A stretch of 64,000 nucleotides of DNA from Candidatus Eiseniibacteriota bacterium (GTDB lineage Bacteria > Eisenbacteria > RBG-16-71-46 > JABDJR01), in NCBI GenBank assembly GCA_963768615.1, contig CAVYIE010000007.1:653181-717180 (forward strand), given 5' to 3'. Position numbers and translations under genes: made by a program. Under the pieces are notes generated by a model. That model ran no database searches. It was not told the DNA's origin and saw nothing but the letters and a program-made list of their open reading frames with translations. This document shows, piece by piece, positions 1,234 through 25,503 of the stretch (the stretch's first letter is position 1; the number at the start of each line of letters is the position of its first letter).

Positions 1234-2034
1234 TCACGCCCCCGGGCCTTCCCGGTCCAGCCGCTTGACGATCCGGCGCACCGAGCGCGCGTGCCCGGTC
1301 TCCTCGTCCAGTTCGATGAGGAGCGCGTAGAGGCGGATGTCGTTCTGGGCGGGCTGGAAACGATGATAGAGGCCGGTCTTGAAGTTCCCCAGCACCGCCT
1401 CCTTCTGCATGCCGATCACCGAGTCGTAGGGACCGGTCATGCCCAGGTCGGTGAGGTAGGCGGTCCCTCCGGGCAGGATCTCCTCGTCCCCGGTGGGAAC
1501 GTGGGTGTGGGTCCCCACCACCACCGAGGCGCGGCCGGCCAGGTGCCACCCCATGGCCCGCTTCTCCGAGGTCGCCTCGGCGTGCATGTCCACCACCAGG
1601 TACCGCGCTCCCCGCTCCCGGGCCCGGGCCACCAGGTCGTCCGCGGCCCGGAAGGGGTCGTCGAGGGCGCGCATGAACACCCGGCCCAGGAGGCAGCCCG
1701 CAACCAGCAGCCCTCCCGGGACCTCGGCCTCGACCCAGGTGCGGCCGGGGGCCCCGGGGGGATAGTTGGCGGGACGGCAGAGGCGGCTCTCGGACTCGAT
1801 GTAGGCGTGACCCTCGCGCTTGTCGTAGAGGTGGTTCCCTCCGGTGATGAGATCCACCCCGGCCTTGAACAGCTCCTCGGCGGTGTCCTTGGTGAGCCCC
1901 GCCCCGCCGGCCAGGTTCTCACCGTTGGCCAGCACCACCGAGATTCCCAGTTCCTCCCGCAGGCCGGGAAGGAAGGTCTCCACCGCCCGGCGGCCGGGAC
2001 GGCCCACCACGTCGCCGATGAAAAGTAGATTCAT
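1234..2034 (-). CDS. YmdB-family metallophosphoesterase (2',3'-cyclic-nucleotide phosphodiesterase-like, TIGR00282)
   Basis: 266-aa ORF MNLLFIGDVVGRPGRR...ANGENLAGGAGLT...GGNHLYDKRE. Conserved GDxxG / GNH metallophosphatase motifs match the YmdB family. Confidence 0.85.
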   Translation of the reverse strand: MNLLFIGDVVGRPGRRAVETFLPGLREELGISVVLANGENLAGGAGLTKDTAEELFKAGVDLITGGNHLYDKREGHAYIESESRLCRPANYPPGAPGRTWVEAEVPGGLLVAGCLLGRVFMRALDDPFRAADDLVARARERGARYLVVDMHAEATSEKRAMGWHLAGRASVVVGTHTHVPTGDEEILPGGTAYLTDLGMTGPYDSVIGMQKEAVLGNFKTGLYHRFQPAQNDIRLYALLIELDEETGHARSVRRIVKRLDREGPGA

Positions 2035-2318: not shown

Positions 2319-2612
2319 TTAGCGACCGCCGAGCGCCTCGTCCAGAAGTTCCTCCAGACGTTCCAGCCGGGTGCGCAGCTGCAGGCGTTCGTCCCGGCGC
2401 TGCTCGCGTTCGTCGAGCAGCTCGCCGGCGATGGAGAGCGAGGTCAGCACCGACACCTTGGCCGGCGGCAACGCCGCCCGCGGATCCAGCTCCCGCATCT
2501 TCCCGTCCACGTACGCCGCGATGCGCACCATCGTGTCCGGGTTCAGGTCGGTGCGGAGCTGGTAGGACGCTCCGCGGATCTGCACCGTGGTCTCGTTCAC
2601 CGGTTTGGCCAT
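2319..2612 (-). CDS. zapA: Cell division protein ZapA
   Basis: 97 aa starting MAKPVNETTVQIRGASYQLRTDLNPDTMVRIAAYVDGKMRELD... with a C-terminal coiled coil, as in ZapA. The long ORF 2319..2759 begins at an upstream GTG; the internal ATG at about 2612 fits ZapA length. Confidence 0.75.
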   Translation of the reverse strand: MAKPVNETTVQIRGASYQLRTDLNPDTMVRIAAYVDGKMRELDPRAALPPAKVSVLTSLSIAGELLDEREQRRDERLQLRTRLERLEELLDEALGGR

Positions 2613-2673
2613 GTTCGATCCTCGCCCGAAGCGGTGCGCGCCCGTCCCGGTCCGTCCGGTGGGCGTGCCTCCG

Positions 2674-2997
2674 CTACTCGCGCTCCATGGACTCCAGGCG
2701 TTCCAGGATGGCCTGGACGCGCTGGGCGGTGGCGGCCCGCGAGCGGAGCAGGTCGTCACGTTCCTTCTCCAGCCGCGTCACCTGGTCCCGTTCCGCCCCC
2801 GCCTCGGCCAGCCCCGCCTCCAGCTCGCCCACCCGCGCCTCGCGCTCGGCCAGCTGCTCCCGGAGACGATCCCGCTCGACCCGCAGGTCCCGGATGAGGG
2901 CCGCCGCCTCCTCCACCCGCCGCTCCAGCTGCTCCAGCGCGGCCAGCTCCTCCCCCGCCGCCTCCACCACGTCCGTCTCCGTCGTGCTCGTGCTCAT
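2674..2997 (-). CDS. Small coiled-coil protein, ZapB-like (cell-division associated)
   Basis: 107 aa that is almost entirely heptad-repeat coiled coil (LEQLERRVEEAAALIRDLRVERDRLREQLAERE...). Lies directly upstream of zapA. Confidence 0.4.
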   Translation of the reverse strand: MSTSTTETDVVEAAGEELAALEQLERRVEEAAALIRDLRVERDRLREQLAEREARVGELEAGLAEAGAERDQVTRLEKERDDLLRSRAATAQRVQAILERLESMERE

Positions 2998-3027: not shown

Positions 3028-5433
3028 TCAGCTCTCGCGACGCGTGATGCCGTGCCCTGCCAGCGCGCCGACGATGCCCTCCATCGCGGCGTCCACCTCC
3101 CCCTCCTCCAACGTGCGGTCGGAGGCGCGGAAGGTCAAACTGAAGCCGAGCCCCACGTGCCCGGCGGGAATGTGCTTGCCCCGGTAGTGGTCGAACAGCT
3201 CCAGCCCGGCGAGATGGGCGCCGGCCGCCGCCCGGACGATCTCCCGCACCGCGTCCTGGCTCGTTCCCTCGGGAACGACCAGGGCCAGGTCCCGGCGCAC
3301 CGCCGGGTACCGGGACGGCTCGCGGTAGACCACGGGGGTTCCGGTGTCGGGAGGCAGGGCGTCGAGGCGGATCTGGGCCAGGAACACCGGCCGGTTGAGA
3401 TCCCACCGCGCGGCGGCGGCTTCGTCCACCGTCCAGGCGAAACCGAGGCTCCGGTCGCCCGCGGCCGCTTCGATCACGCCCGCCGGAACCGGATCGGGGC
3501 CAGTATAGGAGCGCCATCGGGGAGCGTCAATTTTGAACGCGGCCAGCAGCGCTTCCACGCAGCCCTTGAACTCGGTGAAGCTGAAGCTCCGCTGGGCGCG
3601 CTCCAGGGAAGGGGCGAACTCGCCGCCCGCCGCGGCCAGGCCCACCCACTCCGTCTCCTCGGGCAGCTCGCCCGGACCGCGACGGCGGAAGGTCTTCCCC
3701 AGCTCGTAGAACCTGGCCTCGGGAACCCCGTGGCGCAGGTTGTGCCCCACCGCGTCCAGGAGGGAGGGGAGGAGGCTGATGCGGAGCCCTTCCTCCTCGC
3801 GGGTGGGCGGGTCCAGGAGGAGCAGGGTGTCCGTCTCCGCGCGGGCCGGGTCCGCCCCCACCCGCACCGCGGCCTCCCGCGACACCAGGACCTTGGTCAC
3901 CGCCTCGTGGAACCCGATCCCCCTGAGGATCTCCCCCACCCGGCGCCGGCGGCGTTCCGCGGGCTGGAGAGGCGCGTCGACGGCGCTGGCGTTCAGGTGG
4001 CGGATCCCGATCGCGTCGTACCCGCGGTGCCGGGCCACCTCCTCCACCAGATCGCATTCCTCGAACACGTCGCGCCGCCAGCTGGGCACGGCCACCGGCC
4101 AGGGGACCGCGCTCCGGTCCACCGGGAAGCCGAAGGCGGCCAGCCGTTCGGCGATCTCCTCCTCGGGCACCGGATCGCCCAGGGTTTCCCCCACCTTGGC
4201 CGGGCGCAGGGACACCGTGCGCGGCTGGAGGAGCTCGGGAGCGAGGGCCTCGGCCATGCCCGGCGCCACCTCCCCGCCCGCGGTCCCGGCCAGGAGCGCG
4301 GCCGCCCGCCGGGCGGCGTCGTCCACTCCGGCGGGATCGATGCCCCGGCGGAAGCGGATGGCGGCGTCGGTGTCCAGGCGCAGGAAGCGGGAGCCCCGGA
4401 GGATGCGCTCCGGCTTGAAGAAGGCGGCCTCGAGCAGGATGTTGGTGGTGCCCTCGTGGACCTCGGTGTTGGCCCCCCCCATCACTCCCCCCGCGGCGAT
4501 GGGCCGCTCCCCGTCGGTGATGAGGAGCACCGAGTCGTCCAGGGCGCGGTCCACGTCGTCCAGGGTGGTGAGACGCTCCCCGGCCCGGGCCCGCCGGACC
4601 AGGATGCGGCCGGTGCCCAGGCGGTCGAGATCGAAGGCGTGCAGGGGCTGGCCCAGCTCCTGCATCACGTAGTTGGTCACGTCCACCACGTTGTTGATGC
4701 TGCGCTGGCCCACCGCCTCCAGGCGCCGGACCAGCCACTCCGGGGAGGGGCCCACGGTCACACCCCGGATCACGTGGGCGGTGAAGCGGGGACAGTCCTC
4801 CGGGTCCTCCACCGCGACCCGGAACTGCTCCGTCGCGGGCGGGCCGGAGCGGGGCGCCTCGGCGGCGGGACGGCGGCAGGCGGCCCCGGTGAGGGCGGCG
4901 ATCTCCCGCGCCAGCCCCAGGTGGCTCAGGCAGTCCCCCCGGTTGGAGGGCACGTCGATGTCCAGGATCACGTCGCGCTCACCCAGCACGCGGTTGAGGG
5001 GCGTGCCGGGCGCCGCGGGCGCGAGTTCCATGATCCCGGAGGCGTCCTCCCCCAGGCCGAGCTCCACCTCGGAGCAGAGCATCCCGTTCGAGACCTCGCC
5101 CCGGATCCTGGCCCGCTTCAGGGTGAGGCCGTTGGGGAGGGTGGCCCCCACCGGGGCCAGGGGGCTGTAGAGCCCTTCCCGGGCGTTGGGGGCGCCGCAC
5201 ACCACCTCCACCGGGCTCCCCTCCCCCACCTCCACCCGGCACAGGCGCAGGCGGTCGGCGTTGGGATGGGGGCGCACTTCCACCACCTTCCCCACCACCA
5301 CCGTGTCGGGAATCACCACCGGCCGCTCCACCCGGTCCACGGGGAGTCCGGCCAGGGTCAGGCGATGGGCCAGGGCCTCGGGCTCCTCGGCCACCTCCAC
5401 GAAATCTCGGATCCAGTTCAGGCTGAAGCGCAC
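3028..5433 (-). CDS. pheT: Phenylalanine--tRNA ligase beta subunit
   Basis: ORF 3028..5532; the conserved N-terminus begins [14 protein letters not shown] at a GTG near 5433. The sequence contains B3/B4, tRNA-binding and B5 domains typical of PheT (...[24 protein letters not shown]...). Confidence 0.9.
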
Positions 5434-5678
5434 GTCGTCTCTCCGGGAACGGCCCCCGCGCCGCGGTCGCCGCCCGGCACCTTGCGGCTCTCCGTGCGGA
5501 CGGGGGCGAATGGGAAGCGGCAATCCTACCACGGTCCGAGGGGGGCGGGAGGGGGTCCGGGGCCGCTTCCCGGGAGGCGTTCGAGACGCTAGACTCGCGG
5601 TTCCATGTCATGCGTCGCCGATCATCGCCGTCCCCCGTTCCCTGCTCCCGCCGGCCGCTCCCAGGAGGCGGCACGGCG

Positions 5679-6803
5679 GTGAAGGTGTGCCTGATCAGCC
5701 TGAGCGGCCTCCCCCTGCAGCTCGAGAACCCGCGCACGACCGCCGGTGGTTCCGAGCGCCAGGTCACCCTTCTCGCCCAGGCCCTGGCCGGGCGGGGCCA
5801 CGAGGTGATCCTGGTCGTCACCGACTACGACCGGGCCGCGCGCCGGGAACCGCGCGCCACCCCGTTCCCCCTGGAGAACGCCTACCGGGTCCGGGCCGGC
5901 ATCCCCGGCCTGCGCTTCCTCCATCCCCGCTGGGCCGGCCTCGATCGCGCCCTGGGGCGGGCGGATGCGGAGGTGATCTTCCAGCGGGGGGCCGGGGCGG
6001 TGACCGGCCAGGCGGCCTGGTTCGCCCGGCGGCGGGGACTCCCCTTCGTGTTCGGCCTGGCCAGCGACACCGACGCCGATCCGGACCGGGTGCGCCTGGG
6101 GTTCCGCGATCGCCGGCTCTACCGCTACGGGCTCCGCCGGGCCCGCCGGGTGGTGGCTCAGCACCGGCACCAGGCCGAGGCCCTTCGCGCCGGCTACGGG
6201 GTGGAGTCCACGGTGATCGGCAGCATCGCCCCCCACCTTCCCGAGCGGGTGGAGGAGCCGGCCTCCCCCCCGGTGGTGGCCTGGCTGGGCAACTTCCGCG
6301 CCCTCAAGCGTCCGGAGCTGTTCCTGGCCATGGCCCACCGCTTCCCCGACGTCCGCTTCCAAATGATGGGGGGGCCGGTGCGGAGCGAGCCCGGTTGCCT
6401 CGACACCGTGCGTTCCGAGGCCGCCTCGCTCCCCAACGTGGAGTTCCTCGGCCCCACGCCCGATCCCGGACCCCGGCTGGCCCGGGCCTGGGTGCTGCTC
6501 AACACCTCGGAGCTGGAAGGATACCCGTCCAGCTTCGTGGAGGCTTGGGGCCACGGCGTTCCCACCGTCTCCTTCGTGGATCCGGGCGGGGTGATCGCCG
6601 CCCGCGGGCTGGGCCTGGTGGCGTCGGAACCGGGGGACCTGGGCCGGGTACTGGAGAGCGTGCTGGGTGCGCGGACGCTCCGCGACGAGCTGGGAACGCG
6701 CGCCCGCGCCTACGCCCGGAGCGAGCACGCCCCGGACGCGGTGGCCGCCCGCTACGAGACCCTCTTCGCCGAGGCCGCGGACGCGGCCCGGAGGCGTTCA
6801 TGA
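5679..6803 (+). CDS. Glycosyltransferase family 4 (GT-B, GT1 superfamily)
   Basis: ORF 5610..6803; the likely start is a GTG (VKVCLISLSG...) preceded by GGAGG. Features of retaining GT4 enzymes are present: an N-terminal Gly-rich sugar-acceptor domain and the C-terminal motif ...NTSELEGYPSSFVEAWGHGVPTV... (E-x7-E). Confidence 0.8.
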   Translation: MKVCLISLSGLPLQLENPRTTAGGSERQVTLLAQALAGRGHEVILVVTDYDRAARREPRATPFPLENAYRVRAGIPGLRFLHPRWAGLDRALGRADAEVIFQRGAGAVTGQAAWFARRRGLPFVFGLASDTDADPDRVRLGFRDRRLYRYGLRRARRVVAQHRHQAEALRAGYGVESTVIGSIAPHLPERVEEPASPPVVAWLGNFRALKRPELFLAMAHRFPDVRFQMMGGPVRSEPGCLDTVRSEAASLPNVEFLGPTPDPGPRLARAWVLLNTSELEGYPSSFVEAWGHGVPTVSFVDPGGVIAARGLGLVASEPGDLGRVLESVLGARTLRDELGTRARAYARSEHAPDAVAARYETLFAEAADAARRRS

Positions 6804-8857
6804 ACCCGATCGATCCCGTGACCGCAGGCGGGGACCCGGGCACGGAACGGCCGGGGCTGTTCCTCTCCCCCATCCTGCTCCTGGTGGTGGTGGCCTACGG
6901 CCTGGCCGCCCTCGGCTGGGGAGGCACCCTGTTCCTGGCGGCGGCGGGCTCGGCGGCCGCGCTGCTCCTGCCCGGGAACGCCCTTCTCCTCGCCTTCTCC
7001 TATCCCCGGACCCGGGCCCGGGACCTGGTCCTGGGAGCCGCGCTATCCCCGGTGGTCCTGGGAGCCACGGTAGCCGCCGCCCTTCTCACCGGTTCCCCGG
7101 TCCTGGTCTGGGTGCGGGGCCTGCTTCTCGGCTGCGGTCTGGGCATGCTGGTGCTGCGAGTGGCGGGAGACGGGACCGCGGCCGGGGACGACGAGGAGAT
7201 TCCCGCCGCGGCCTGGCTGGTGGGGCTGCTGGCCCTGGCCGCGGTGGCCCTCATCCTCCTGCCCGAACCCTGGCGGAGGAGCAACTCCGACGCCTGGTTC
7301 CACACCGCGGTGGTGTTCGAGATGGCCCGGGCCGGGGTGCCCCCCCAGGATCCCTACTTCGCCGGACTCACCCTCCAGTACTTCTGGTTCTATCACGCGG
7401 TGGTCCTGGGGCTGGGGGCCGCGGCCGGCCTCTCCCCTCCCGACGCCATGACCCTGCTCAACCTGGCCGCGGCGCTCCTGACCCCTCCCGCGGCGAGCCG
7501 GGTGGCCCGGGCCCTCGGCTTCTCCCCCGCCGCCGGCACCTGGGCCGGGGTGCTCGTTCTCCTCGGGATGGGAGGCCTCTCCTGGCTCTTCTTCCCCCTC
7601 AAGCTGGTCGGGGTCCTGATCGGCGACGTGCGCGGCTACCAGGCCCTCCACGACATCATCTCCCTGGGAGCGACGAACCCGTCCAACACATCCCGGCTGG
7701 TCCAGTTCCTGAGCAGCTCCAGCTTCATGATGCGGAAGTACGTGATCGGCACCGCGGTCCCCTGGTCGTTGCTCCTGGTGCTCGTCGCCGCCGACGCCGC
7801 GTTGCGCTTCGTCCGCGACCTGCGTCCGGCCGACGCCGCCCTCCTCGTCGCCGCCGGGGCGGGAGCCTTCCTCTTCCACGTGGTCCTGGGCGGCGCCCTC
7901 ATCGCCGGCCTGGCCGCGGGGGCGGGCATCCTCTTCCTGGCCGGGCGGGGCATGCGGGGCCGCGCCCTGGGAGTGGCGGTCCTGGCCGCGGCCGCCCTCG
8001 CCCTCTGCCTGCCCTACCTGCTGACCCTGGTCGGCGGCCGGGGGGGCGCTTCCGCGCTTCCCTTCGGGCTCAGCCTGCGGCTGTGGGTCTCCATCCCCTT
8101 CACCCTGGCCGGGGTGGCGCTCCTCTCCGTTCCCGCCTGGCGCCGGCTGGCCCGGGCCGGAACCCCGGCCGCCCGGCTCTACATGGCCTGGTTCGCGGCC
8201 GTCACCCTCTACGCCCTCATCGCCCGGCTTCCCGGGGCCAACCAGTACGACAAGCCCCCCATCCTCATCTACCTCCCCCTGTCCCTCGCCGCGGGCATGG
8301 CCGTCCCCGGGATCTGGCGCGCCCTGGCCGGACGCCCCCGGACCCGGGTGGCCTTCGCGCTGCTCCTGGTGCTGTTCCTGCTCCCCGAGAACGCCTTCCG
8401 GTGGTGGGGGTTCTACGGGGAAGCGGCACCCCCCGCGCTCACCGCCGCCGAGCACGACCTGTACTCCTGGGTGAGGGACGACACGCCCCGCGACGCGGTG
8501 TTCGTGGACTCGGCCGACCGCATGGAGGTGGTGGTGCGCGGACCCCGCCGCCAGTACTGGGGCATCCCCGCCTACGCCGAGCAGTGGGGCTACGATCCGG
8601 CGGAAATGGCCCTCCGGCAGGCGGTGCGGGATTCGGTCTACGCCTCGGGGCGGATCGGTCCCGCGGGAAAGGCGGACCTGGCCTCGCTCCACGCCCCGGT
8701 CTACGTGATCGTGAGGGACGAGGACACCCCGGGGGCGGCCGACCGACTCCTGGCCCTCCCCCGGCGCTACCGCCCCCTCTTCCACGAGGACGGGATCCGG
8801 GTGTTCCGGATCGTGCTCCCGGACACCACGGTGAAGCAGCCGGCTAGAACTGGGTGA
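6800..8857 (+). CDS. Polytopic membrane protein, putative GT-C-type glycosyltransferase (paralog of 18594..21152)
   Basis: The ATG at 6800 overlaps the GT4 stop (ATGA). The protein is 685 aa with more than 11 predicted TM helices. A periplasmic-loop motif SDAWFHTAVVFEMARAGVPPQDPYFAG resembles GT-C catalytic loop motifs (ArnT REMLASG, STT3 DPYF). A C-terminal soluble domain follows. The upstream part of ORF 5186..8857 is an antisense artefact. Confidence 0.6.
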   Translation: MNPIDPVTAGGDPGTERPGLFLSPILLLVVVAYGLAALGWGGTLFLAAAGSAAALLLPGNALLLAFSYPRTRARDLVLGAALSPVVLGATVAAALLTGSPVLVWVRGLLLGCGLGMLVLRVAGDGTAAGDDEEIPAAAWLVGLLALAAVALILLPEPWRRSNSDAWFHTAVVFEMARAGVPPQDPYFAGLTLQYFWFYHAVVLGLGAAAGLSPPDAMTLLNLAAALLTPPAASRVARALGFSPAAGTWAGVLVLLGMGGLSWLFFPLKLVGVLIGDVRGYQALHDIISLGATNPSNTSRLVQFLSSSSFMMRKYVIGTAVPWSLLLVLVAADAALRFVRDLRPADAALLVAAGAGAFLFHVVLGGALIAGLAAGAGILFLAGRGMRGRALGVAVLAAAALALCLPYLLTLVGGRGGASALPFGLSLRLWVSIPFTLAGVALLSVPAWRRLARAGTPAARLYMAWFAAVTLYALIARLPGANQYDKPPILIYLPLSLAAGMAVPGIWRALAGRPRTRVAFALLLVLFLLPENAFRWWGFYGEAAPPALTAAEHDLYSWVRDDTPRDAVFVDSADRMEVVVRGPRRQYWGIPAYAEQWGYDPAEMALRQAVRDSVYASGRIGPAGKADLASLHAPVYVIVRDEDTPGAADRLLALPRRYRPLFHEDGIRVFRIVLPDTTVKQPARTG

Positions 8858-9866
8858 GGAACCGGAGGTCGTTCTCCAGGAAGAGGCGGATGTCCGGAAC
8901 GCCGTGGCGGAGAATCGCGATGCGCTCGACCCCCATTCCCGCCGCGTAGCCCGAGACCTCCTCGGGGTCGTAGCCCGCGTTCCGGAGCACCTGGGGATGC
9001 ACCATGCCCGCGCCCAGGATCTCGATCCAGCCCGTCTGCTTGCACAGCCGGCAGCCCGAGCCCAGGCACTGGAAACAGGTGATGTCCACCTCCGCCCCCG
9101 GTTCCACGAAGGGGAAGTAGGAGGGGCGGAAGCGCACGTCGAGGCTCCGTCCGAACATCTCCCGGGCGAAGGTGGTGAGGGTCCCCCGGAGGTCCTTCAT
9201 GGTCACCCCCCGGTCCACGTAGAGCACCTCCACCTGGTGGAACTCCGAGGAATGGGTGGCGTCCTGGGTCTCGTTCCGGTAGACGCGGCCGGGGAACACC
9301 TTCCGCACCGGCGGAGGCTGGCTCTCCATCACCCGAATCTGCACCGGGGAGGTGTGGGTGCGCAGCACCACCGACTCGGAGATGAAGAAGGTGTCCTGCA
9401 TGTCCCGGGCGGGGTGGCCGGGAGGCATGTTGAGGGCCTGGAAGTTGTGGTAGTCGTCCTCGACGTCCGGCCCCCGGGCCACGGAGAAACCCATACCCCG
9501 GAAGATGTCGAGGATCCGCTCCTCGGTCTGGGTGAGGAGGTGGGCCACTCCCAGGGGGGGCCGGATTCCGGGCAGGGTGGGATCCTCGGCCGGACCCGTC
9601 CGGCCCGCTCCGAGGGCCCGCTCCCGCTCGGCGTAGGCCGACTCCAGGGTCTGCCTGGCCTGGTTGGCCGCCTGCCCCACCGCCCCCCGCTCCTCCGCGG
9701 GCACGTCCTTGAGCCCCCGGAGCACCCCGGTCAGGGGCGACTTCCGAGCCAGGTGCCGGACCCGGGCCGCCTCCAGGGCACCCGGATCCGGGGCCCCGGT
9801 GATCTCGGCCAGGGCCTCCTCCCGGATGCGGTGGATCTGGTTGAGGAGCTCGGCGGCGGCGGGCAC
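8844..9866 (-). CDS. pheS: Phenylalanine--tRNA ligase alpha subunit
   Basis: 340 aa with class II aaRS motifs (...FPGRVYRNETQDATHSSEFHQVEVLYVD...GWIEILGAGMVHPQVL...). Confidence 0.95.
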   Translation of the reverse strand: MPAAAELLNQIHRIREEALAEITGAPDPGALEAARVRHLARKSPLTGVLRGLKDVPAEERGAVGQAANQARQTLESAYAERERALGAGRTGPAEDPTLPGIRPPLGVAHLLTQTEERILDIFRGMGFSVARGPDVEDDYHNFQALNMPPGHPARDMQDTFFISESVVLRTHTSPVQIRVMESQPPPVRKVFPGRVYRNETQDATHSSEFHQVEVLYVDRGVTMKDLRGTLTTFAREMFGRSLDVRFRPSYFPFVEPGAEVDITCFQCLGSGCRLCKQTGWIEILGAGMVHPQVLRNAGYDPEEVSGYAAGMGVERIAILRHGVPDIRLFLENDLRFLTQF

Positions 9867-9869
9867 GGC

Positions 9870-10229
9870 CTAGGCGCTCACCGCCTCCCGGGCCACCGTG
9901 GCCAGCTCCTTGAACGCCTCGGCGTCCCGCACCGCCAGCTCGGCCAGGAGCTTGCGGTCGATGTCCACGCTGGCCCGCTTCAAGCCGTTGATGAGGGTGC
10001 TGTAGGACATCCCGTTCTGGCGGGCGGCGGCGTTGATCCGGGTGATCCACAGCCGGCGGAAGTCCCGCTTCTTGCGGCGGCGATGCTCGTAGGCGAACTG
10101 GAGGCCGCGCATGACGGTCTCGTTGGCGCTCTTGAACAGGCGGGACCGGCCGCCGACGTTGCCTTTGGCCGCGGCCAGGACCTTCTTTCGCCGGGCGCGT
10201 CCCGGCACCACTCCACGTGCGCGTGGCAT
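9870..10229 (-). CDS. rplT: 50S ribosomal protein L20
   Basis: 119 aa MPRARGVVPGRARRKKVLAAAKG...FKSANETVMRGLQFAYEHRR. Confidence 0.95.
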   Translation of the reverse strand: MPRARGVVPGRARRKKVLAAAKGNVGGRSRLFKSANETVMRGLQFAYEHRRRKKRDFRRLWITRINAAARQNGMSYSTLINGLKRASVDIDRKLLAELAVRDAEAFKELATVAREAVSA

Positions 10230-10313
10230 ATTCGTTCCTCCCGCCCCCTCGATCGGGGGCCTGACTCGCCGGCTCCCGCCTCCCGGCGGGTTCCGGATGG
10301 GACCCCTGCGGTC

Positions 10314-10511
10314 CTAGCTGTAGGGCAGCATCCTCTTGACGTGACCCTCGTCGGCCTTGTCCACCATGGTGGCCTGGCGGAGGTTCCGCTTCCGCTTGGT
10401 GTCCTTCTTGGTGAGGATGTGGCTGTGATACGCCTTCCCGCGCTTCATGCGGCCGGACGCGGTGACCTTGAAGCGCTTGGCCGCGCCCCGCTTGGTCTTC
10501 ATCTTGGGCAT
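10314..10511 (-). CDS. rpmI: 50S ribosomal protein L35
   Basis: 65 aa [36 protein letters not shown]. Confidence 0.95.
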
Positions 10512-10540
10512 CGTCTCTCCTCGTTCCGGAGCGCCGCGGC

Positions 10541-11107
10541 CTAGGCCGGAGCCTCCTCGTCGTCCTTGCCGGTCTTCCCCCGGTCCTTGCGGGGCATCAT
10601 GTACATGGTCATGGTGTAGCCCTCCATGCGGGGAGGGTTCTCCACCTGCGCGATGTCGTCGAGGTCGACCGCGGCCCGGTCCAGCAGGGCCCGGCCCAGT
10701 TCCGAGTGGGCCATCTCCCGGCCCCGGAACATGACCGTGAACTTGACCTTGTTCTTCTCCTCGAGGAAGTTGCGGGCGTGGTTGACCTTGAAGTCGAAAT
10801 CGTGGTCGTCGATCTTGGGCCGGAACTTGACTTCCTTGACCTGGATCCGGTGCTGGACCTTCTTGGCCTTGGCCGCCCGCTTGCTCAGCTCGTATTTGTA
10901 CTTGCCGAAGTCCATGACCCGGCAGACCGGCGGGGACGCCTGCGGCGACACCTCGACCAGGTCCAATCCCCGCTCGCGAGCGAGCTTGAGCGCCTCGTAG
11001 GAGGACATCACCCCGATCTGGCTGCCGTCCTCGTCCACCACCCGCACGGTGGGAATACGAATGCGCTCGTTGACCCGAACTTGGTCCTCTTTCTTGGCTA
11101 TGCCCAT
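10541..11107 (-). CDS. infC: Translation initiation factor IF-3
   Basis: 188 aa ...[53 protein letters not shown]... Confidence 0.95.
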
Positions 11108-11219
11108 AACCTCCTGGATCTTCCCGGGCCCCTCCGCCGGTCGCGCGTCCGCGCGCCGGGGGGTCCGGGCATGTTCATCGCTGGTGCGGCCCTTGCGAAC
11201 CGGCCCTCCGCCCCCAACG

Positions 11220-11259
11220 AAAAAGAGCGGAGCCGCGCCGGGGGCGTCCGCTCCGCTCT
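11220..11259 (-). terminator. Rho-independent terminator between thrS and infC
   Basis: On the minus strand: agagcggagc-ggacgcccccggcgcg-gctccgctct (10-bp perfect stem) followed by UUUUU (plus-strand AAAAA at 11220-11224). Confidence 0.45.
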
Positions 11260-11433
11260 CTCTCCCTCCGGGGACAAAAGCCCGTGCCGTCGGTCCTGGA
11301 CCGCGGCGTCCCCGGGCGGTAGTGAGCGCCCCCCTCTGGGGGAACCCGGTGAGCAGTCGGGCCGCGGCCGGAGACCACGGAACCCCGCCCCGGGTGAGAA
11401 GCGTCCGCCTCTGCTTGGCGCAAGTCGTGTAGT

Positions 11434-13346
11434 TTATTGCCGGGACTGGATCTCGGCAAGAATTTTCTCGGTGAACCCGGCCCGGGGGCTGGCCCCCAGA
11501 TCCCCGTCCCCCCGGTGGCGGACGGACACCGTTCCCGCCTCCTGGTCCCGCCGGCCCACCACCAGCATGTAGGGAACCTTGAGCAGCTCCGCATCGCGGA
11601 TCTTGGCCCCTATCTTCTCGTTACGCTCGTCAACCTCCACCCGGACCCCGGCCTCGAAGAGCTCCCGCCGGACCTCCTCGGCATAGTCCAGGTTCTGGGG
11701 GCTGATGGGGAGCACCTTGACCTGGGTGGGGGCCAGCCAGAGGGGAAAGTCCCCGGCGTAGTGCTCGATCAGGACCCCGAAGAACCGCTCGATGGACCCC
11801 AGGAGCGCCCGATGGATCATGTACGGCCGGTGTTTCTCCCCGTCGTCCCCGATGTAGTACAGGTCGAAGCGCTCCGGCTCGTTGAAGTCGAACTGGATCG
11901 TGCTGCACTGCCAGGAACGGCCGATGGCATCCTGGATCTTGATGTCGATCTTGGGCCCGTAGAAGGCGCCCCCTCCCTGGTCCACCTGGAAGGGGAGCCC
12001 CACCGCCTCCAGGGCCTTCCGCAGGGCGGCCTCCGCCGCCTCCCAGTCGCCGGACTCCCCCACCGCCTTTTCGGGCCGGGTGGAGAGGTAGAGGTCGAAC
12101 TCCTTGAACCCGAACGCGCGAAGCATGTCCAGGCAGAAGCGGAGCACCCGCTCGATCTCCTCCTCCATCTGCTCCGGACGCACGAAGAGGTGGGCGTCGT
12201 CCTGGGTGAAGCCGCGGACCCGCATGAGGCCGTGCAGCACCCCCGGCATCTCGTAGCGATACACGGTGCCCAGCTCCGCCCAGCGCATGGGCAGATCCCG
12301 GTAGGAGTGCAGGCTGTTCTGGTACATCTTGATGTGGAACGGGCAATTCATCGGCTTCACGTAGAATTCCTGGTCGTCCATCTCCATGGGCGGATACATG
12401 AACTCCCGGTAGAAGCCGAGATGGCCGGAGGTCTCCCACAGGTTGGCCCGGCCCACGTGGGGCGAGTACACGATCTCGTATCCGTTCTTCAGGTGCTCGT
12501 CGCGCCAGAAGTCCTCGATCACCTTGCGGATCCGGCCGCCGCGGGGATGCCAGAACACCAGTCCCCCGCCCACGTCCTCGTGGAGGGAGAAGAGGTCCAT
12601 CTCCTTGCCGATCTTCCGGTGGTCGCGCTTCTTGGCCTCCTCCAGCCGGTGGAGGTAGTCGTCGAGCTGATCCTGGGAGTACCAGGAGGTGCCGTAGATG
12701 CGCTGCAGCCGGTCCCGGTCCGAGTCCCCGCGCCAGTAGGAGCCGGCCACCGAGAGCAGCTTGACCGCGTGGAGCCGGCCGGTGGAGGGCAGGTGGGGCC
12801 CGGTGCAGAGATCCACGAAGTCCCCGTGGCGGAAGAGGGTCACCTGGGGATCGGTGATCCCCTCCAGGATCTCCACCTTGAACTTGTCCCGGCGCTGCTT
12901 GAAGTACTCGACGGCCTCTTCCCGCTTCATCCAGCTCTTCTCGAAGGGGACGTCGCGGCGGGCGATCTCGCGCATCCGGTCCTCGATCCGGGCCAGGTCC
13001 TCCTCGGTGAAAGGGCGCTCGGTCTCGAAGTCGTAGAAGAACCCGTCCTCGATGGCCGGCCCGATGGCGTACTTGGTGCCGGGGAACAGCTCCTCCACCG
13101 CCGAGGCCATGATGTGGGCGGAGCTGTGACGGTAGAGGTCGCGGGCGGCGGGATCGTCGAAGCCGAGCAGGCGGACCTCGGCCCCGTCCCGGACCGGTTC
13201 GTAGAGTCCCTTGAGGACCCCGTCCTCCTGGACGGCGAGGATCTCCTCCCCCCCCCCGCCGCACGAACCAGGTCGGAGTAGACGGCGTTCTCCGCCACCT
13301 CAACCGGACGCCGGGCGCTGTCTTCGATCACCGTGACCTTGGGCAT
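11434..13346 (-). CDS. thrS: Threonine--tRNA ligase (apparent frameshift at a C10 homopolymer)
   Basis: ORF 11434..13110 encodes the catalytic and anticodon-binding domains (RHSSAHIMASAVEEL...HRDLPMRWAELGTVYRYE...). The TGS-domain N-terminus (MPKVTVIEDSARRPVEVAENAVYSDLVRAAGGG) lies in a different frame, in ORF 12927..13346. The two frames would join if the C10 run at 13250-13259 were C11 (giving ...AAGGGEEILAVQEDG...). Confidence 0.85.
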
Positions 13347-13394
13347 GACCGCTCCTCGGGGCTCCCGGGCCGGTCCTCGGGGACCGGTCCCGGA

Positions 13395-13427
13395 GCCGAA
13401 ACAGAGACGCAGGCCGGGGGCCTGCGT
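13395..13427 (-). terminator. Putative terminator downstream of tRNA-Val
   Basis: Minus strand: acgcaggcc-ccc-ggcctgcgt (9-bp stem) followed by cucuguuucgg. Confidence 0.3.
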
Positions 13428-13533
13428 TCGGGGAACCGCTGGTTCTTCGGCCGGGGAATGGGAACCCGTGCCCGGCCGGTTCCGGATCCGCTCCGGAGGC
13501 CGTCCCGACGCGGGGGGCCGCTTCCCTTGGCCA

Positions 13534-13610
13534 TGGTGGGCGATAGTGGACTTGAACCACTGACCTCTTGCATGTCAAGCAAGCACTCTAACCAACTGAG
13601 CTAATCGCCC
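13534..13610 (-). tRNA. tRNA-Val (anticodon GAC)
   Basis: Manual cloverleaf: acceptor GGGCGAT/ATCGCCC, D-arm GCTC-AGTTGGTTA-GAGT, anticodon arm CTTGC-TTGACAT-GCAAG, T-arm AGTGG-TTCAAGT-CCACT, encoded 3' CCA. Confidence 0.9.
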
Positions 13611-13628
13611 GCGAAACTTGGGGATGGG

Positions 13629-13656
13629 AGCATACCAGAGGGGGCGTCCCTGTCAA
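13629..13656 (-). promoter_or_regulatory. Putative sigma70-type promoter for tRNA-Val
   Basis: Minus strand: TTGACA (13656-13651), 16-nt spacer, TATGCT (13634-13629), then about 18 nt to the tRNA 5' end. Overlaps a 9-bp hairpin (gggcgtccc/gggacgccc) downstream of the preceding gene. Confidence 0.3.
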
Positions 13657-13678
13657 GACGCGGGACGCCCTCCCGCGC

Positions 13679-13969
13679 CTACCATTCCGCCTCGTCTTCC
13701 TCCTCTTCCTCCTCTTCCTCGAAGTCCTCGTCCTCGTCGTCGTCGTCGTCCCAGTCCTCGTCGTCGTCGTCGAAGTCCTCGTCGTCTTCGTCTTCTTCTT
13801 CTTCGTCGTCGTAGAGCTCGTCGTCTTCTTCTTCGTCGATCATATACACCTCATCGCTGCCGCATTCGGGACAATAGCGGATCACCTCGTCGGGGTTTTC
13901 CTCGGAGGCCTCCTCGTCGAAGGTCGTGCCGTCCTCGTCCGTGTACCCGCAGTTGTCGCACTGCCACAT
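13679..13969 (-). CDS. Small zinc-ribbon protein with a poly-acidic C-terminal tail
   Basis: ATG at 13969 preceded by GGAGGT. MWQCDNCGYTDEDG...RYCPECGSDEVYMIDEEEDDELYDDEEEEDEDDEDFDDDDEDWDDDDDEDEDFEEEEEEEEDEAEW has CxxC...CxxC followed by about 60 residues of D/E. ORF 13679..14107 as listed runs into the tRNA; the internal start is preferred. Confidence 0.6.
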   Translation of the reverse strand: MWQCDNCGYTDEDGTTFDEEASEENPDEVIRYCPECGSDEVYMIDEEEDDELYDDEEEEDEDDEDFDDDDEDWDDDDDEDEDFEEEEEEEEDEAEW

Positions 13970-14074
13970 GCCAGTACCTCCAGCTCTCGCCAAGTCCCAC
14001 AGTTCTGCACCGGGGGCCATGAGGGTACAACACACCCTCCGCACCGGTTCCACCCTTTTTCTGCCGGGAAGTGA

Positions 14075-14151
14075 TGGTGCCCCCGGGGTGACTCGAACAC
14101 CCGGCACGCGGTTTAGGAAACCGCTGCTCTATCCGCCTGAGCTACGGGGGC
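14075..14151 (-). tRNA. tRNA-Arg (anticodon CCT)
   Basis: Manual cloverleaf: GCCCCCG-TA-GCTC-AGGCGGATA-GAGC-A-GCGGT-TTCCTAA-ACCGC-GTGCC-GGGTG-TTCGAGT-CACCC-CGGGGGC-A-CCA. Confidence 0.9.
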
Positions 14152-14354
14152 CAAGAGGTTAAGTGACTGTTTGGCAACAAGATCAAGGAGTCTAGCAGAT
14201 TCCGCGACGGCTCCGCTACCCGGTCGCGACGCCATCTTGGGCCCGCCTCGGGCCGGGGTCAAGCGCACCCCGTGCGCACCCTCCCCGGCCGGCCACGAAA
14301 CCGGGCCCCCGGGGCATCCGGGGGCCCGGCCGAACCCGCGCGCCGTCCGCTCGC

Positions 14355-15593
14355 TCAGGCGGCGTTCTTCACGTAGAGCTTCCGCAGTTCCACCCCGTCC
14401 ACGGAGGCCTTCCCGATGACCAGGCCGGTGGGCGAGGCCGCGGGCTGGAGCCGCAGGTACCAGGTCATGCGCTGGCGATTCAGGTCCAGTCGGTCCTGGG
14501 CCTTGAGCTTGCCCTCGGCCAGGGCCTGCACCTGGTCCTCGGGCACCACCAGGTCCTCGAGGAGGGCGCGGGGTCCGGGAGCCAGGGAGGCGGGATCCAG
14601 GGCCACGGCCACGTTCTCCGCCCGCAGCCGGAAGCCTTCGCCGTCCCTGACCACGAAGGCGTGCAGCGCCACCCGCTCCACCCCGCGCCAGGTCGCGCCC
14701 CGGTCGGCCCGGAACCCGCTGGCGTCGAGGTAGCCGGACCCGTCCCGCTCCTGGGTCATGGGTGGGCTCGCGCCCAGGGCCAGGGGAATGACGTCGACGT
14801 CCAGGTCGTCGTTTCCGCTCTCCTGAACGTCGCGGAGGATGGAGTCGAGGTGGTAGCGCGTCCCCTCGGTGCGGCTGAGATCGAAGCGCAGGGTGAGGGG
14901 CGCCGCCCCCCGGTCCCCTTTCACCAGGTCCTCGATGGATGCCTGGCGCAGCCCGGGAACACGAAGGTAGTAGTTCTCGACGATCGCGTTCCGGCCGATC
15001 CAGTGGGGCCAGCTGACCACGTTCACGGCCACGTAGCGGGAGTCGTCGGGGTTGACCAGCGCCGCCAGTCCGCCCGCGGCGGGGGGCGGGTTCCCGGCCC
15101 GGGCCACCACCTGGGCCAGGGACGCCTGCTGGGAATAGGAGCGGGTCATGTGATCCCGCGCCACTCCCACCACCGCCGCCAGCACCGCCAGCACGCCCAG
15201 GAACACGAAGGGGAGCACCACCTTCTGCTTCCGGGAGGGGGTCAGGGAGTGTTCGTGGAGCGCCGAGATGGTGCTCCCCGCCCCTGGCCCCGCCCCCCCG
15301 CCCGCCGCGGGAGAGGCGGCCTTGGCGTGCAGGGCCTCCATGTCGGCGACGTCCTTGACCGTGAGACCGGCGGCGGCGGCCTTCTCCCGGACCGCGGCCA
15401 CCTCCCCGGCGGTCATGGGGTCGGACCGGACCACCGAGTGCATGAAGTTGACCGCGTGGTAGCCCTTGATACCCAGATCCTGGATCAGCTTGCGGGCCTC
15501 GGTCTCCCCGCGCCCCATACCCGCCAGCTCCACCAGGCCCTTGCTGTCGATCCGCACCTCGACCGGATGGGTCTTCACAACCATCGTCATCAC
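14355..15593 (-). CDS. Hypothetical single-pass membrane protein (cytoplasmic N-domain of about 120 aa, one TM, periplasmic C-domain of about 270 aa)
   Basis: 412-aa ORF with ordinary, non-PGR-rich composition. TM segment VVLPFVFLGVLAVLAAVVGVA. No recognisable family. Transcribed divergently from the flippase/GT operon. Confidence 0.6.
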   Translation of the reverse strand: MMTMVVKTHPVEVRIDSKGLVELAGMGRGETEARKLIQDLGIKGYHAVNFMHSVVRSDPMTAGEVAAVREKAAAAGLTVKDVADMEALHAKAASPAAGGGAGPGAGSTISALHEHSLTPSRKQKVVLPFVFLGVLAVLAAVVGVARDHMTRSYSQQASLAQVVARAGNPPPAAGGLAALVNPDDSRYVAVNVVSWPHWIGRNAIVENYYLRVPGLRQASIEDLVKGDRGAAPLTLRFDLSRTEGTRYHLDSILRDVQESGNDDLDVDVIPLALGASPPMTQERDGSGYLDASGFRADRGATWRGVERVALHAFVVRDGEGFRLRAENVAVALDPASLAPGPRALLEDLVVPEDQVQALAEGKLKAQDRLDLNRQRMTWYLRLQPAASPTGLVIGKASVDGVELRKLYVKNAA

Positions 15594-15750
15594 CTGCCCT
15601 GTTCGATCCGGGACCGGAGCGGGCGGCTCCCGCGCCGGCTCGCGGATTCCTCCGATCCAACCTTCCCACCCGGTGGCGGGTTGCCCCTCCCCTCAAAATT
15701 CGAATTCACTTATGCTTCCCTCCGCAGGTCGACGGCCGCCGGTCCCCGCC

Positions 15751-15780
15751 TTGACACCGGACGGCTAAAAGGCGGAAAAT
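15751..15780 (+). promoter_or_regulatory. Putative promoter for the wzx-GT4-membrane-GT operon
   Basis: TTGACA at 15751-15756, 18-nt spacer, GAAAAT at 15775-15780. A 10-bp perfect palindrome AATTCGAATT lies at 15697-15706 in the divergent intergenic region. Confidence 0.25.
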
Positions 15781-15872
15781 TGTGCGCTTATGCGCGCCGG
15801 AGTTCTCCGGTGCGAGCCCGGGCCCGAAGCGGCCGGGGTGTCCGGACCCCCCGGGCCGGGCCGAAGGCGCGC

Positions 15873-17378
15873 GTGAGGCCCAACCCGAGACCCGATCGCC
15901 ACTTGAGCCAGAACAACTCCGAGTTCCTCCGCGGACTGCTCACCCTCACCCTCAGCCGCTACTTCGTCCGGGGCTTGAGCCTGCTCAAGGGCCTGGTGGT
16001 GGCCCGCGTCCTGGGCCCCAGCCTGTACGGGATGCTGGGGATCCTGGCCGTGTTCATGGGCTACAGCGCCTACGCCGACCTCGGCATCTTCGGCGGGCTC
16101 ACCAAGACCCTCCCCGTCCACCTCTCCCGCGAGGAGCGCGAGGAGATGGCCCGCCAGGAGGGAATCGGCTTCACCTCGGTCACCCTCCTCACCGTGCTCT
16201 TCGCGGCGGTGGTCATGGGGGTCATGTGGGAACGGGGGGCGGTGGTGAAGCGCGCCCTCCCCGCCCTGGCCTTCGCCATGATCGCCCAGCAGTTCTTCAA
16301 GTACTGCACGGTGCTGCTCCGGGCCCGGAGCCGGTTCGGCGAGACCGCCTTCGCGTGGAGCTTCCTCCAGATCCTGGACATGCTCTTCGTGCTCGCCCTG
16401 GTCTTCCCCCTCAACCTCACCGGGGTGTTCCTCGGCCAGGGGCTGGCCTTCACCGTGGCCGCGGCGGTCATCGCCCGCCGTAACCGGCTCGTCCCCCGCC
16501 TCATTCTCGACCCCCGCTTCTCCGCCGTGCTCATCCGGGCGGGCATCCCCCTGGTGGTCTCCACCCTCACCTTCCTCCTCCTGCAGACCGTGGACCGCTT
16601 CCTTATCGTGGGTTTCCTCAGCGCGGAGGCCCTGGGCCACTACATGATCGGGGTGTTCTGCGCCAACTTCATCTACTTCATCCCCCAGAGCCTGGGCTAC
16701 GTGCTGTTTCCCAACTTCCGGGAACGGCTGGCCGGCCTCGCCGAGGGCGAGCGCCCGCCGCTCCGGTACATCGAGCTTCCCACCCGGATGCTCTCCTATG
16801 TGCTCCCTCCCTTCACCGCCATGGTGTTCCTGGGCATTCCCGTCATCGGGCTCCTCCTGCCCGCCTACGTGCCGGGGTTGGAGAGCGCCCGCATCCTGGT
16901 CATGGGGACCTTCTTCCTCTCCCTGGTCACCAGCATCACCAGCTTCCTCATCGCCGCCGACCGCCACTGGTCTTTGATGGGGGTGCAGGTGGCGGCGGTG
17001 CTGATGGACTTGGGGCTCAACTACTTCGCCCTCCGGACCGGCCGCGGCATCGAGGGGGTGGCCCTGGCCACCGCCCTCTCCTACGTGTTCTACGCCACCG
17101 CCTCCCTGGCCCTGGCCTACCGCTACCTGCGCTTCCGCTGGGAGGCGATGACGCCCCGCCTGGGCCGGCTCTACGCCCCCTACCTGTACACCCTCGCCGC
17201 CGCGCTCCTGGTGGCCTCCTGGAGCCCCCTCGGGAACCCGGGTCCGGTGATCCTCACCGTGGTCCTGCGCGAGGTCGTCTTCCTGCTCGCCCTGCTCCCG
17301 GGAGTGTGGCTGCTCCAGCGCACCACCGGAGCGGTGGGCGAGGTGGCGGGCATGATCCGGAAGGCGGTGCGGACGTGA
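15873..17378 (+). CDS. Polysaccharide/oligosaccharide flippase, Wzx-like (MOP superfamily)
   Basis: About 500 aa with 12-14 TM helices. The N-terminus ...LLTLTLSRYFVRGLSLLKGLVVARVLGPSLYGMLGIL is typical of Wzx/RfbX-type polysaccharide biosynthesis proteins. Start at GTG 15873 or TTG 15903. Confidence 0.8.
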   Translation: MRPNPRPDRHLSQNNSEFLRGLLTLTLSRYFVRGLSLLKGLVVARVLGPSLYGMLGILAVFMGYSAYADLGIFGGLTKTLPVHLSREEREEMARQEGIGFTSVTLLTVLFAAVVMGVMWERGAVVKRALPALAFAMIAQQFFKYCTVLLRARSRFGETAFAWSFLQILDMLFVLALVFPLNLTGVFLGQGLAFTVAAAVIARRNRLVPRLILDPRFSAVLIRAGIPLVVSTLTFLLLQTVDRFLIVGFLSAEALGHYMIGVFCANFIYFIPQSLGYVLFPNFRERLAGLAEGERPPLRYIELPTRMLSYVLPPFTAMVFLGIPVIGLLLPAYVPGLESARILVMGTFFLSLVTSITSFLIAADRHWSLMGVQVAAVLMDLGLNYFALRTGRGIEGVALATALSYVFYATASLALAYRYLRFRWEAMTPRLGRLYAPYLYTLAAALLVASWSPLGNPGPVILTVVLREVVFLLALLPGVWLLQRTTGAVGEVAGMIRKAVRT

Positions 17379-22425: not shown

Positions 22426-22648
22426 GAAGGGACACTCCGTTCCGGGGGACTGGGGGCGGGCCGCCCCGCCGGCGAGCCCGGGCCCGCGCCGGCGCCGTTC
22501 GAGGTCCCGTTTATAGGCGAGGGACGGGCCGCGGTCAACCGGCGGCGTGGGGCCGGGGCGGCGCGAACCCGCCCGGAGCGATGGCTGCGCGTACCGGCGG
22601 CATCCCCGGCACGGGGTCATTTTTCCCCGTCCCCGGCCTCTGGCGCTC

Positions 22649-22657
22649 TGGTAGAAT
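22649..22657 (+). promoter_or_regulatory. Extended -10 element (TGgTAGAAT) about 10 nt upstream of the gmd ATG
   Basis: TG at 22649-22650 and TAGAAT at 22652-22657; the gmd start is at 22667. Implies a very short or leaderless 5' UTR. Confidence 0.3.
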
Positions 22658-22666
22658 ATTCGCCCT

Positions 22667-23692: not shown

Positions 23693-23699
23693 GCCGCCG

Positions 23700-25432: not shown

Positions 25433-25503
25433 GCCGGAGGGCGGACCGTCCGGAGCCGTCCGGGCTCCCCCCGCCGATCCCCCCCGGCGGCCGAGGAGAG
25501 CCC

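Follow-up and report, generated by a model that had tools for sequence, protein, structure and literature searches.

In Escherichia coli, the genes for the two subunits of phenylalanyl-tRNA synthetase (PheRS) stand in the region thrS-infC-rpmI-rplT-pheMST-ihfA. Here we describe the corresponding region in a 64,000-nucleotide (nt) stretch of a Candidatus Eiseniibacteriota contig, CAVYIE010000007.1 (hereafter the window, whose positions are used below), and in particular the gap between its pheS and pheT genes. As in E. coli, thrS, infC, rplT, and pheS stand in the canonical order on one strand, and the next translation gene after them remains pheT. Unlike in E. coli, 3.4 kb with two antisense glycan genes, which we call GT4a and memA, part pheS from pheT, so that the canonical pheST operon, with pheT directly downstream of pheS on the same strand, is not found in the window. 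Also unlike in E. coli, no pheM-type leader was detected; an Rfam scan of the window returned five tRNAs only and, around pheS and pheT, neither a leader nor a riboswitch. We think it likely that the interrupted gap is an old, vertically inherited trait of an Eisenbacteria-like clade in which the break between pheS and pheT serves as a slot for glycan genes, that GT4a and memA form an operon belonging to a gene set that has been split, and that pheT has its own promoter. The locus comprises the following features:

3028 to 5433, minus strand: pheT, the PheRS beta subunit (Pfam B3_4, B5, tRNA_synthFbeta, FDX-ACB, and tRNA_bind)
5434 to 5678, no strand: divergent intergenic region between pheT and GT4a, 245 nt, presumed from the sequence to carry the promoters of both
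5679 to 6803, plus strand: GT4a, 374 amino acids, a family-4-type glycosyltransferase with a cytoplasmic GT-B fold (Pfam)
6800 to 8857, plus strand: memA, a 685-amino-acid polytopic membrane protein with a predicted GT-C fold, of an unclassified family
8844 to 9866, minus strand: pheS, the PheRS alpha subunit (Pfam tRNA-synt_2d, E 2e-97)

pheT and pheS are thus 3410 nt apart, with the two antisense genes between them. The pheT open reading frame (ORF) spans 3028-5532 on the minus strand, and its real start, read from the sequence, is the GTG at 5433. The GTG at 5679 is the start of GT4a, which an aligned ATG plus GGAGG in two relatives backs. The GT4a stop and the memA start share the sequence ATGA, which a GGAGG precedes by 6 nt, and memA ends at 8857 and pheS at 8844, a convergent overlap of 14 nt. 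Pfam matches and the sequence bear out the original prediction on its genes, the antisense placement of the pair, the ATGA coupling, and this overlap; its coordinates also stand, the pheT start at 5433 being one base from its 5434. The overlap of memA and pheS is not conserved, being replaced by a spacer of 13 nt in one relative (L001) and of 60 nt in another (L056).

The rarity of such a separation was judged from an adjacency survey of 51 pheS loci fetched from many phyla, 47 of which have sequence downstream. pheT lies within about 300 nt of pheS in 45 of these 47, which bears out the rule of adjacency from which the original prediction had started. One exception is a Thermosipho metagenome-assembled genome (MAG) in which truB, ychF, and a radical-SAM gene follow pheS (L039:10975-14414), and the other is a gammaproteobacterial MAG in which pilin and type IV pilus genes (pilin, T2SSE ATPase, and T2SSF) do so (L027:6315-9022); in both, pheT was not detected within 4 to 10 kb, even at E<0.01. 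Separated pheS and pheT genes are rare, not unique. A search of the literature on pheS/pheT non-adjacency, on Eisenbacteria, and on DUF2298/DUF6541 found nothing relevant. The gap in the window is a real and unusual but ordinary gene-order trait, and nothing in it is mechanistically new, since the disruption of operons by local rearrangement and glycan pathways built of GT4 and GT-C enzymes are already well known.

The same interruption recurs in relatives. Tracing memA orthologs to their contigs (the loci and contigs used for comparison are designated by L-numbers), we distinguished three layouts, in which angle brackets give the reading direction and in which GT87 and memB are membrane-protein genes of a second glycan gene block of the window:

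Layout C, <pheT GT4a> memA> <pheS: the window; L001/L002 (JGI, Logan; memA 60% identical); L056 (ENA); L092; L093
Layout C with a contig that ends before pheT: L092 (NCBI GCA_975961835.1)
Layout C with an expanded gap (8893-20189): L093 (GCA_942491735.1, CALOCN010000014.1)
Layout B, infC> rpmI> rplT> pheS> memA> GT4a> pheT>, all co-directional: L057 and L060
Layout A, pheS and pheT 51 nt apart, with the glycan pair between GT87 and memB (GT87> memA> GT4a>): an Eisenbacteria MAG (L003/L005)

The interrupted order of layout C, pheT, GT4a>, memA>, pheS, was seen in at least four other independent assemblies. In L093, the gap measures 11.4 kb and holds 10 genes (GT4a, memA, two sulfotransferases, an adenosine 5'-phosphosulfate [APS] kinase, CysD-, CysN/C-, and CysQ-like genes, a Wzx-type flippase, and a methyltransferase), a content that points to a sulfated glycan and to a gap in which genes accumulate. 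The spacers of layout B are 36, 12, and 140 nt long. The nearest named genome is the MAG labelled Candidatus Eisenbacteria (L005; pheS 78% identical), and in its layout A the pair lies between GT87 and memB, a place that is empty in the window. Layouts B and C share the positional order pheS, memA, GT4a, pheT, with each gene flipped. We rejected the idea that one inversion or one translocation could link all three layouts, since the two genes of the pair come in different orders (GT4a> memA> in layout C; memA> GT4a> in layouts A and B). In L056, memA and thrS are each found in two ORFs (9355-11383 and 14170-16082); these are probably assembly frameshift errors and not pseudogenes.

The polarity of the change was read from a neighbor-joining (NJ) tree of pheS plus pheT (587 ungapped columns, 300 bootstraps, six taxa, with L057 assumed as the root), which gave (((window,(L001,L056))83,L005)100,L093)100. 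As L093, which has layout C, branches outside L005, which has layout A, and the window group, again with layout C, is the sister of L005, the interruption is most parsimoniously ancestral. The contiguous pheS-pheT of L005 would then, most parsimoniously, be a secondary rejoining, with the pair relocated by about 12 kb to the glycan cluster; this direction of the rearrangements is one that we infer from the tree. Further, the identity matrices of pheS, pheT, rplT, GT4a, and memA across the six genomes are mutually congruent, which argues for vertical descent of the pair. The original prediction had seen an insertion into a core operon and had named an ancestral lineage trait as the other outcome of a synteny comparison. 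Relatives do share the interrupted layout (L001, L002, L056, L092, and L093), so that it is not a recent insertion, and with the tree placing the interruption as ancestral, that other outcome largely holds.

The interruption implies that pheS ends the thrS-infC-rpmI-rplT-pheS unit. When the spacers of the window, L001, and L056 were aligned, two conserved islands stood out in otherwise divergent sequence, each with a candidate promoter element:

5523 to 5531, minus strand: candidate pheT promoter, an extended -10-like box, TGGTAGGAT, some 90 nt before the pheT GTG (spacer alignment)
5590 to 5595, plus strand: candidate GT4a-memA promoter, a -10-like box, TAGACT, some 85 nt before the GT4a start (weak)

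The first box is held in a 13-nt block, CCGTGGTAGGATT (5534-5522 on the pheT strand), which is identical in the three genomes and has a single exact copy in the window. The second belongs to a block, GCTA[GA]ACT, kept in the same three genomes and found as GCTAGACT on the GT4a strand (about 5588-5595). These conserved blocks are reasonable candidates for divergent promoters, whose use we infer, and pheT, with zapB and zapA behind it, is most likely transcribed from its own promoter in the 245-nt spacer. The separate pheT promoter that the original prediction had placed in 5434-5678 is therefore plausible, given the 13-nt block. The 140-nt spacer before pheT in L057 (L057:6343-6482) is AT-rich (…TTGATATGACAAATCTAGTTAGAATGAAGTTTTAAGGGGG…) in a genome of 65% GC, and pheT may have its own promoter there too. 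How PheRS keeps its alpha/beta stoichiometry without co-transcription is a question on which this rare and stable uncoupling of the two subunit genes, documented in a phylum that is little known, has a bearing.

The two genes in the gap are of different kinds. GT4a has the N-terminal and C-terminal Rossmann domains of the GT4/GT-B enzymes, with all four Pfam scores above the gathering cutoffs given in brackets: PF13579 Glyco_trans_4_4, 60.7 bits (29.7); PF13439 Glyco_transf_4, 55.0 bits (28.5); PF13692 Glyco_trans_1_4, 36.2 bits (27); and PF00534 Glycos_transf_1, 28.2 bits (26.4). The EX7E motif in the C-terminal domain marks GT4 retaining enzymes, and in GT4a it is present as EGYPSSFVE within NTSELEGYPSSFVEAWG and is conserved in the L001, L003, and L057 orthologs. 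A match of GT4a to the Pfam model GT4-conflict (26.2 bits against a cutoff of 26) was weighed as a defense-system lead and dropped as generic GT4 similarity, the context being all glycan biosynthesis.

memA matched no Pfam or NCBIfam family, and a profile search of the PDB sequences gave no match. An AlphaFold2 (AF2) model built from eight homologs (predicted local distance difference test [pLDDT] score 71.9, predicted template modeling [pTM] score 0.70) is strong in its core and C-terminal domain, and a Foldseek search of this model against the PDB returned 27 matches at E<=1e-3, all of which are GT-C enzymes (AftA, STT3, AglB, DPY19, ArnT, PglB, and AftD). The core of the predicted structure is superimposable on solved GT-C enzymes, and the protein ends in a predicted periplasmic alpha/beta domain. 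With the nearest solved structures (STT3/AglB/PglB, AftA, ArnT, and Pmt), memA shares an invariant Asp in the first outer loop and, after it, juxtamembrane helices, but its identity to them is only 9 to 13%, it has about four extra N-terminal helices in a low-confidence part of the model, and it lacks a Pfam STT3, PMT, or ArnT match. Across 40 homologs, D164, H168, and R583 are invariant and D184-P185, K313, N481, and K485 nearly so. In the model, helix 136-153 closely precedes D164, which opens helix 164-178 and, on the predicted sidedness, would be the conserved acidic residue of the first extracytoplasmic loop; together, the conserved residues would fit a catalytic loop of the GT-C type and, after it, basic residues that bind phosphate. 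We conclude that memA has, as modeled, the fold of the GT-C glycosyltransferases and would act as one of them, and its co-occurrence with a Wzx-like flippase lends indirect support to a polyprenyl-phosphate-linked donor.

Assignment of memA to the STT3 family was rejected, as none of the 40 members has an STT3 Pfam match and the sequence RWWGFYG (residues about 534-540) is not conserved. The orthologs do not keep this sequence, and the family consensus is YAxxWGY, with no WWD[YWF]G; RWWGFYG was accordingly rejected as the WWDYG motif of oligosaccharyltransferases (OST). The memA family is large, with 2037 clusters (50% identity, E<=1e-3), of which 407 are found at E<=1e-30. Weak matches to DUF2298 occur in 12 of the 40 members (best E 3e-7), and the L092 ortholog is flagged as DUF2298 (weak), whereas the memA of the window lies below the gathering threshold and has no match at E<=0.01. 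The memA family and DUF2298 are probably sister families.

memB, the second large membrane protein of the window, resembles DUF6541 in the same partial manner: two of seven memB homologs match the model (best E 5.6e-9), and the L059 homolog carries a precomputed DUF6541 annotation, whereas the memB of the window has no match, so that the window's memA and memB score against neither DUF model although some of their homologs do. The L003 ortholog of memB is 45% identical. Compared directly, memA and memB gave a BLASTP E of 0.2, but the 40-member memA alignment and the 7-member memB alignment matched in hhalign at 99.3% probability (E 2.2e-20, 575 columns, 19% identity), with the loop motif SDAWFHTAVVFEMARAG of memA aligned to TDAPDHVGTLREILASG of memB. 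The profile comparison indicates that memA and memB are ancient full-length paralogs, both of which would be GT-C-fold glycosyltransferases.

memB is part of the rest of what reads as an envelope-glycan pathway, a block of glycan genes that lies 7 to 16 kb off, beyond thrS, with two hypothetical genes between thrS and the flippase:

15867 to 17378, plus strand: Wzx-like flippase, start approximate (Pfam Polysacc_synt; 75% identity to L001 and 67% to L003)
17306 to 18607, plus strand: GT4b, a second GT4 glycosyltransferase (Pfam)
18594 to 21152, plus strand: memB, an 852-amino-acid DUF6541-like membrane protein (hhalign)
21112 to 22719, minus strand: GT87-family (PimE-like) membrane mannosyltransferase, start probably near 22344 (Pfam GT87, 93 bits)
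22667 to 23692, plus strand: GDP-mannose 4,6-dehydratase (Pfam GDP_Man_Dehyd, E 9e-132)
23700 to 24650, plus strand: NAD-dependent epimerase/reductase (Pfam Epimerase, E 7e-54)

The window's GT87 is 62% identical to its L003 ortholog from residue 126 onward. The dehydratase and epimerase (22667-24650) would supply GDP-deoxyhexose for the glycan. In distant bacteria (L059, L070, L071, L075, and L089, and probably L091), the flippase, memA, and memB adjoin in this order and are co-directional, with memA 28 to 30% and memB 33 to 35% identical to those of the window. Downstream of them, L059, L070, and L089 carry GT4b-like genes, to which L059 adds one that is GT4a-like. In L003, the order is GT87> memA> GT4a> abutting <memB <GT4b <flippase. 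As the distant clusters unite the flippase, memA, memB, and GT4 genes, the two modules of the window are halves of one conserved gene set, and as both paralogs stand side by side in distant lineages, the duplication that produced them predates the lineage of the window. The memA family and its DUF6541-like paralog memB, which travel together with a flippase in many uncultured soil bacteria, merit biochemical attention.

The closest described pathways are the Wzx-dependent polysaccharide or O-glycan clusters combined with periplasmic elaboration of the mycobacterial type (PimE/GT87 and Aft). Like these, the window joins a Wzx-like flippase, GT4 enzymes, a GDP-mannose dehydratase and epimerase, a GT87, and further GT-C proteins; unlike Wzx clusters, its set is split by translation genes, and the stretch examined yielded no Wzy, Wzz, or initiating phosphoglycosyl transferase. 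Judging from family membership, the GT4 enzymes would make a polyprenyl-phosphate-linked glycan at the cytoplasmic face, Wzx would then flip it, and memA, memB, and the GT87 would, at the outer face, draw on lipid-phosphate donors to transfer or extend sugars.

Several other accounts of the gap were weighed. The one on which the original prediction was built, that a recent copy of the GT4 and membrane-glycosyltransferase cassette at 17306-21152 landed in the pheS-pheT spacer, has real similarities behind it: the two cassettes do share their gene order (a GT4, then a large polytopic protein), the start/stop overlap, and the loop motif DAxxH...E..x.G, and their membrane proteins are truly homologous at the profile level. 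However, GT4a and GT4b, which are not close relatives on their sequences, share only a generic 50-amino-acid stretch (BLASTP E=0.007), memA and memB show no similarity in BLASTP (E=0.2) and are only 19% identical at the profile level, and the latter two stand side by side in distant bacteria. In addition, each cassette has its own orthologs in relatives, those of GT4a and memA being 64/60% identical in L001, 53/50% in L003, and 43/43% in L057. Neither gene of the pair is closer to its counterpart in the other cassette than to these orthologs, which marks GT4a plus memA as a distinct orthologous unit. The paralogy claimed for the modules thus survives for memA and memB, as an ancient one that long predates the lineage; a recent duplication into a core operon is an attractive story but a wrong one, which we correct here and to which we assign a very small probability. 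An assembly or binning artefact, in which a chimeric contig joins the pheS and pheT regions around unrelated genes, might be suspected in an uncultured organism when some related assemblies have frameshifts (the split memA and thrS of L056), but this is close to inconceivable, as the same junctions appear in independent JGI, ENA, NCBI, and Logan assemblies, on contigs of 0.3 to 3.4 Mb. A horizontally acquired genomic island or mobile element would account for an insert that is foreign to the function of the operon and lies on the opposite strand, and glycan genes are often mobile. Against it, GC is flat at 0.73 to 0.75, with the insert (0.74 to 0.75) the same as its flanks; a repeat search at the borders found GC-rich chance matches only and no direct or inverted repeats; the scanned ORFs in and next to the gap contain no recombinase domain, whether integrase or transposase; the GT4a and memA identities follow those of pheS and pheT across the six genomes, with no incongruent phylogeny; and orthologs lie in the neighboring glycan cluster in L003. 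We consider an island very unlikely.

Selection could also have favored the gap as a place for glycan genes, for example by tying their expression to a constitutive translation operon. Two layouts that are not interconvertible occupy the same gap (sense in L057 and L060, antisense in the window clade), L093 has expanded it to 10 genes, and the short L057 spacers (36 and 12 nt) fit co-transcription with pheS. Yet the glycan cluster is always a neighbor of the tRNA-Arg/tRNA-Val/thrS-pheT region, so that chance local shuffling suffices; one nested lineage lost the arrangement; and at least 30 more distant memA loci have neither pheS nor pheT nearby. We therefore regard selection for the association as unlikely. 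It is likewise rather unlikely, if a little less so, that pheS and pheT are still co-transcribed by read-through over the 3.4 kb of antisense GT4a and memA, damping the glycan genes and needing no separate promoter. The 14-nt 3' overlap of memA and pheS agrees with read-through, as do an intrinsic-terminator scan that found nothing at the convergent pheS/memA junction, or in the divergent spacer, and folding at the junction that is no better than in shuffled sequence (z -0.97 and -0.55); the conserved extended -10-like box upstream of pheT speaks against it, a head-on encounter with transcription of the GT4a-memA operon would carry a cost, and it is implausible that read-through is obligatory for the clade when the L093 gap spans 11.4 kb and has genes in both directions. 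A bolder synthesis, which we offer tentatively and at a similarly low probability, would make the broken junction a long-lived selected slot that expands and contracts (0, 2, or 10 genes, sense or antisense) and memA plus memB a widespread OST-like GT-C pair, with >2000 clusters, acting jointly after the Wzx flippase, possibly in the glycosylation of proteins or envelope polymers. The plasticity of the gap and the large, uncharacterized memA and memB GT-C families are by-products of interest in any case. Our own reading, that of an ancestral, vertically inherited interruption with a separate pheT promoter, has several points against it. At least two events are needed to link the layouts, no single inversion or translocation doing so; the markers of the tree are pheS and pheT themselves, analyzed for six taxa by a distance-based NJ method with an assumed root; the conserved pheT box was seen in three genomes, of which two are closely related; a strict sigma-70 consensus scan found nothing in 5300-5800; and the memA model is moderately confident, with a pLDDT of <60 over the N-terminal residues (about 160).

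The surroundings of the locus are compact and rich in G+C (about 73% in the window). On the minus strand lie tRNA-Arg(CCT), tRNA-Val(GAC), thrS, infC, rplT, and pheS and later, beyond the gap, pheT and the genes 3' of it; pheS closes the thrS-infC-rpmI-rplT-pheS string. The immediate neighbors are as follows:

9870 to 10229, minus strand: rplT, with pheS starting 3 nt downstream
2674 to 2997, minus strand: zapB-like gene, 3' of pheT on the same strand
2319 to 2759, minus strand: zapA, 3' of pheT on the same strand
1234 to 2034, minus strand: ymdB, 3' of pheT on the same strand

The tRNA-Val/tRNA-Arg anchor upstream of thrS/infC is kept in L001, L005, L056, and L060; in L060, which has layout B, no thrS stands between tRNA-Val and infC, and memB starts immediately beside tRNA-Arg. 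In the window, the two tRNAs bracket, within 13534-14151, a small ORF (13679-14107) with a weak, sub-threshold match to an IS1595 zinc ribbon. Several sizeable ORFs in the vicinity of the glycan genes lack a Pfam match (14355-15593 on the minus strand, 27429-30647 on the plus strand, and 24644-26301 on the minus strand); one of these, of 412 amino acids, is kept beside the flippase in L001 and L003, and some of them may be shadow ORFs of high-GC sequence. The tails of memB (plus strand) and GT87 (minus strand) also converge, with an overlap of 41 nt at 21112-21152, which is the second tail-to-tail overlap of the region; overlapping convergent ends may be common in a compact, high-GC genome.

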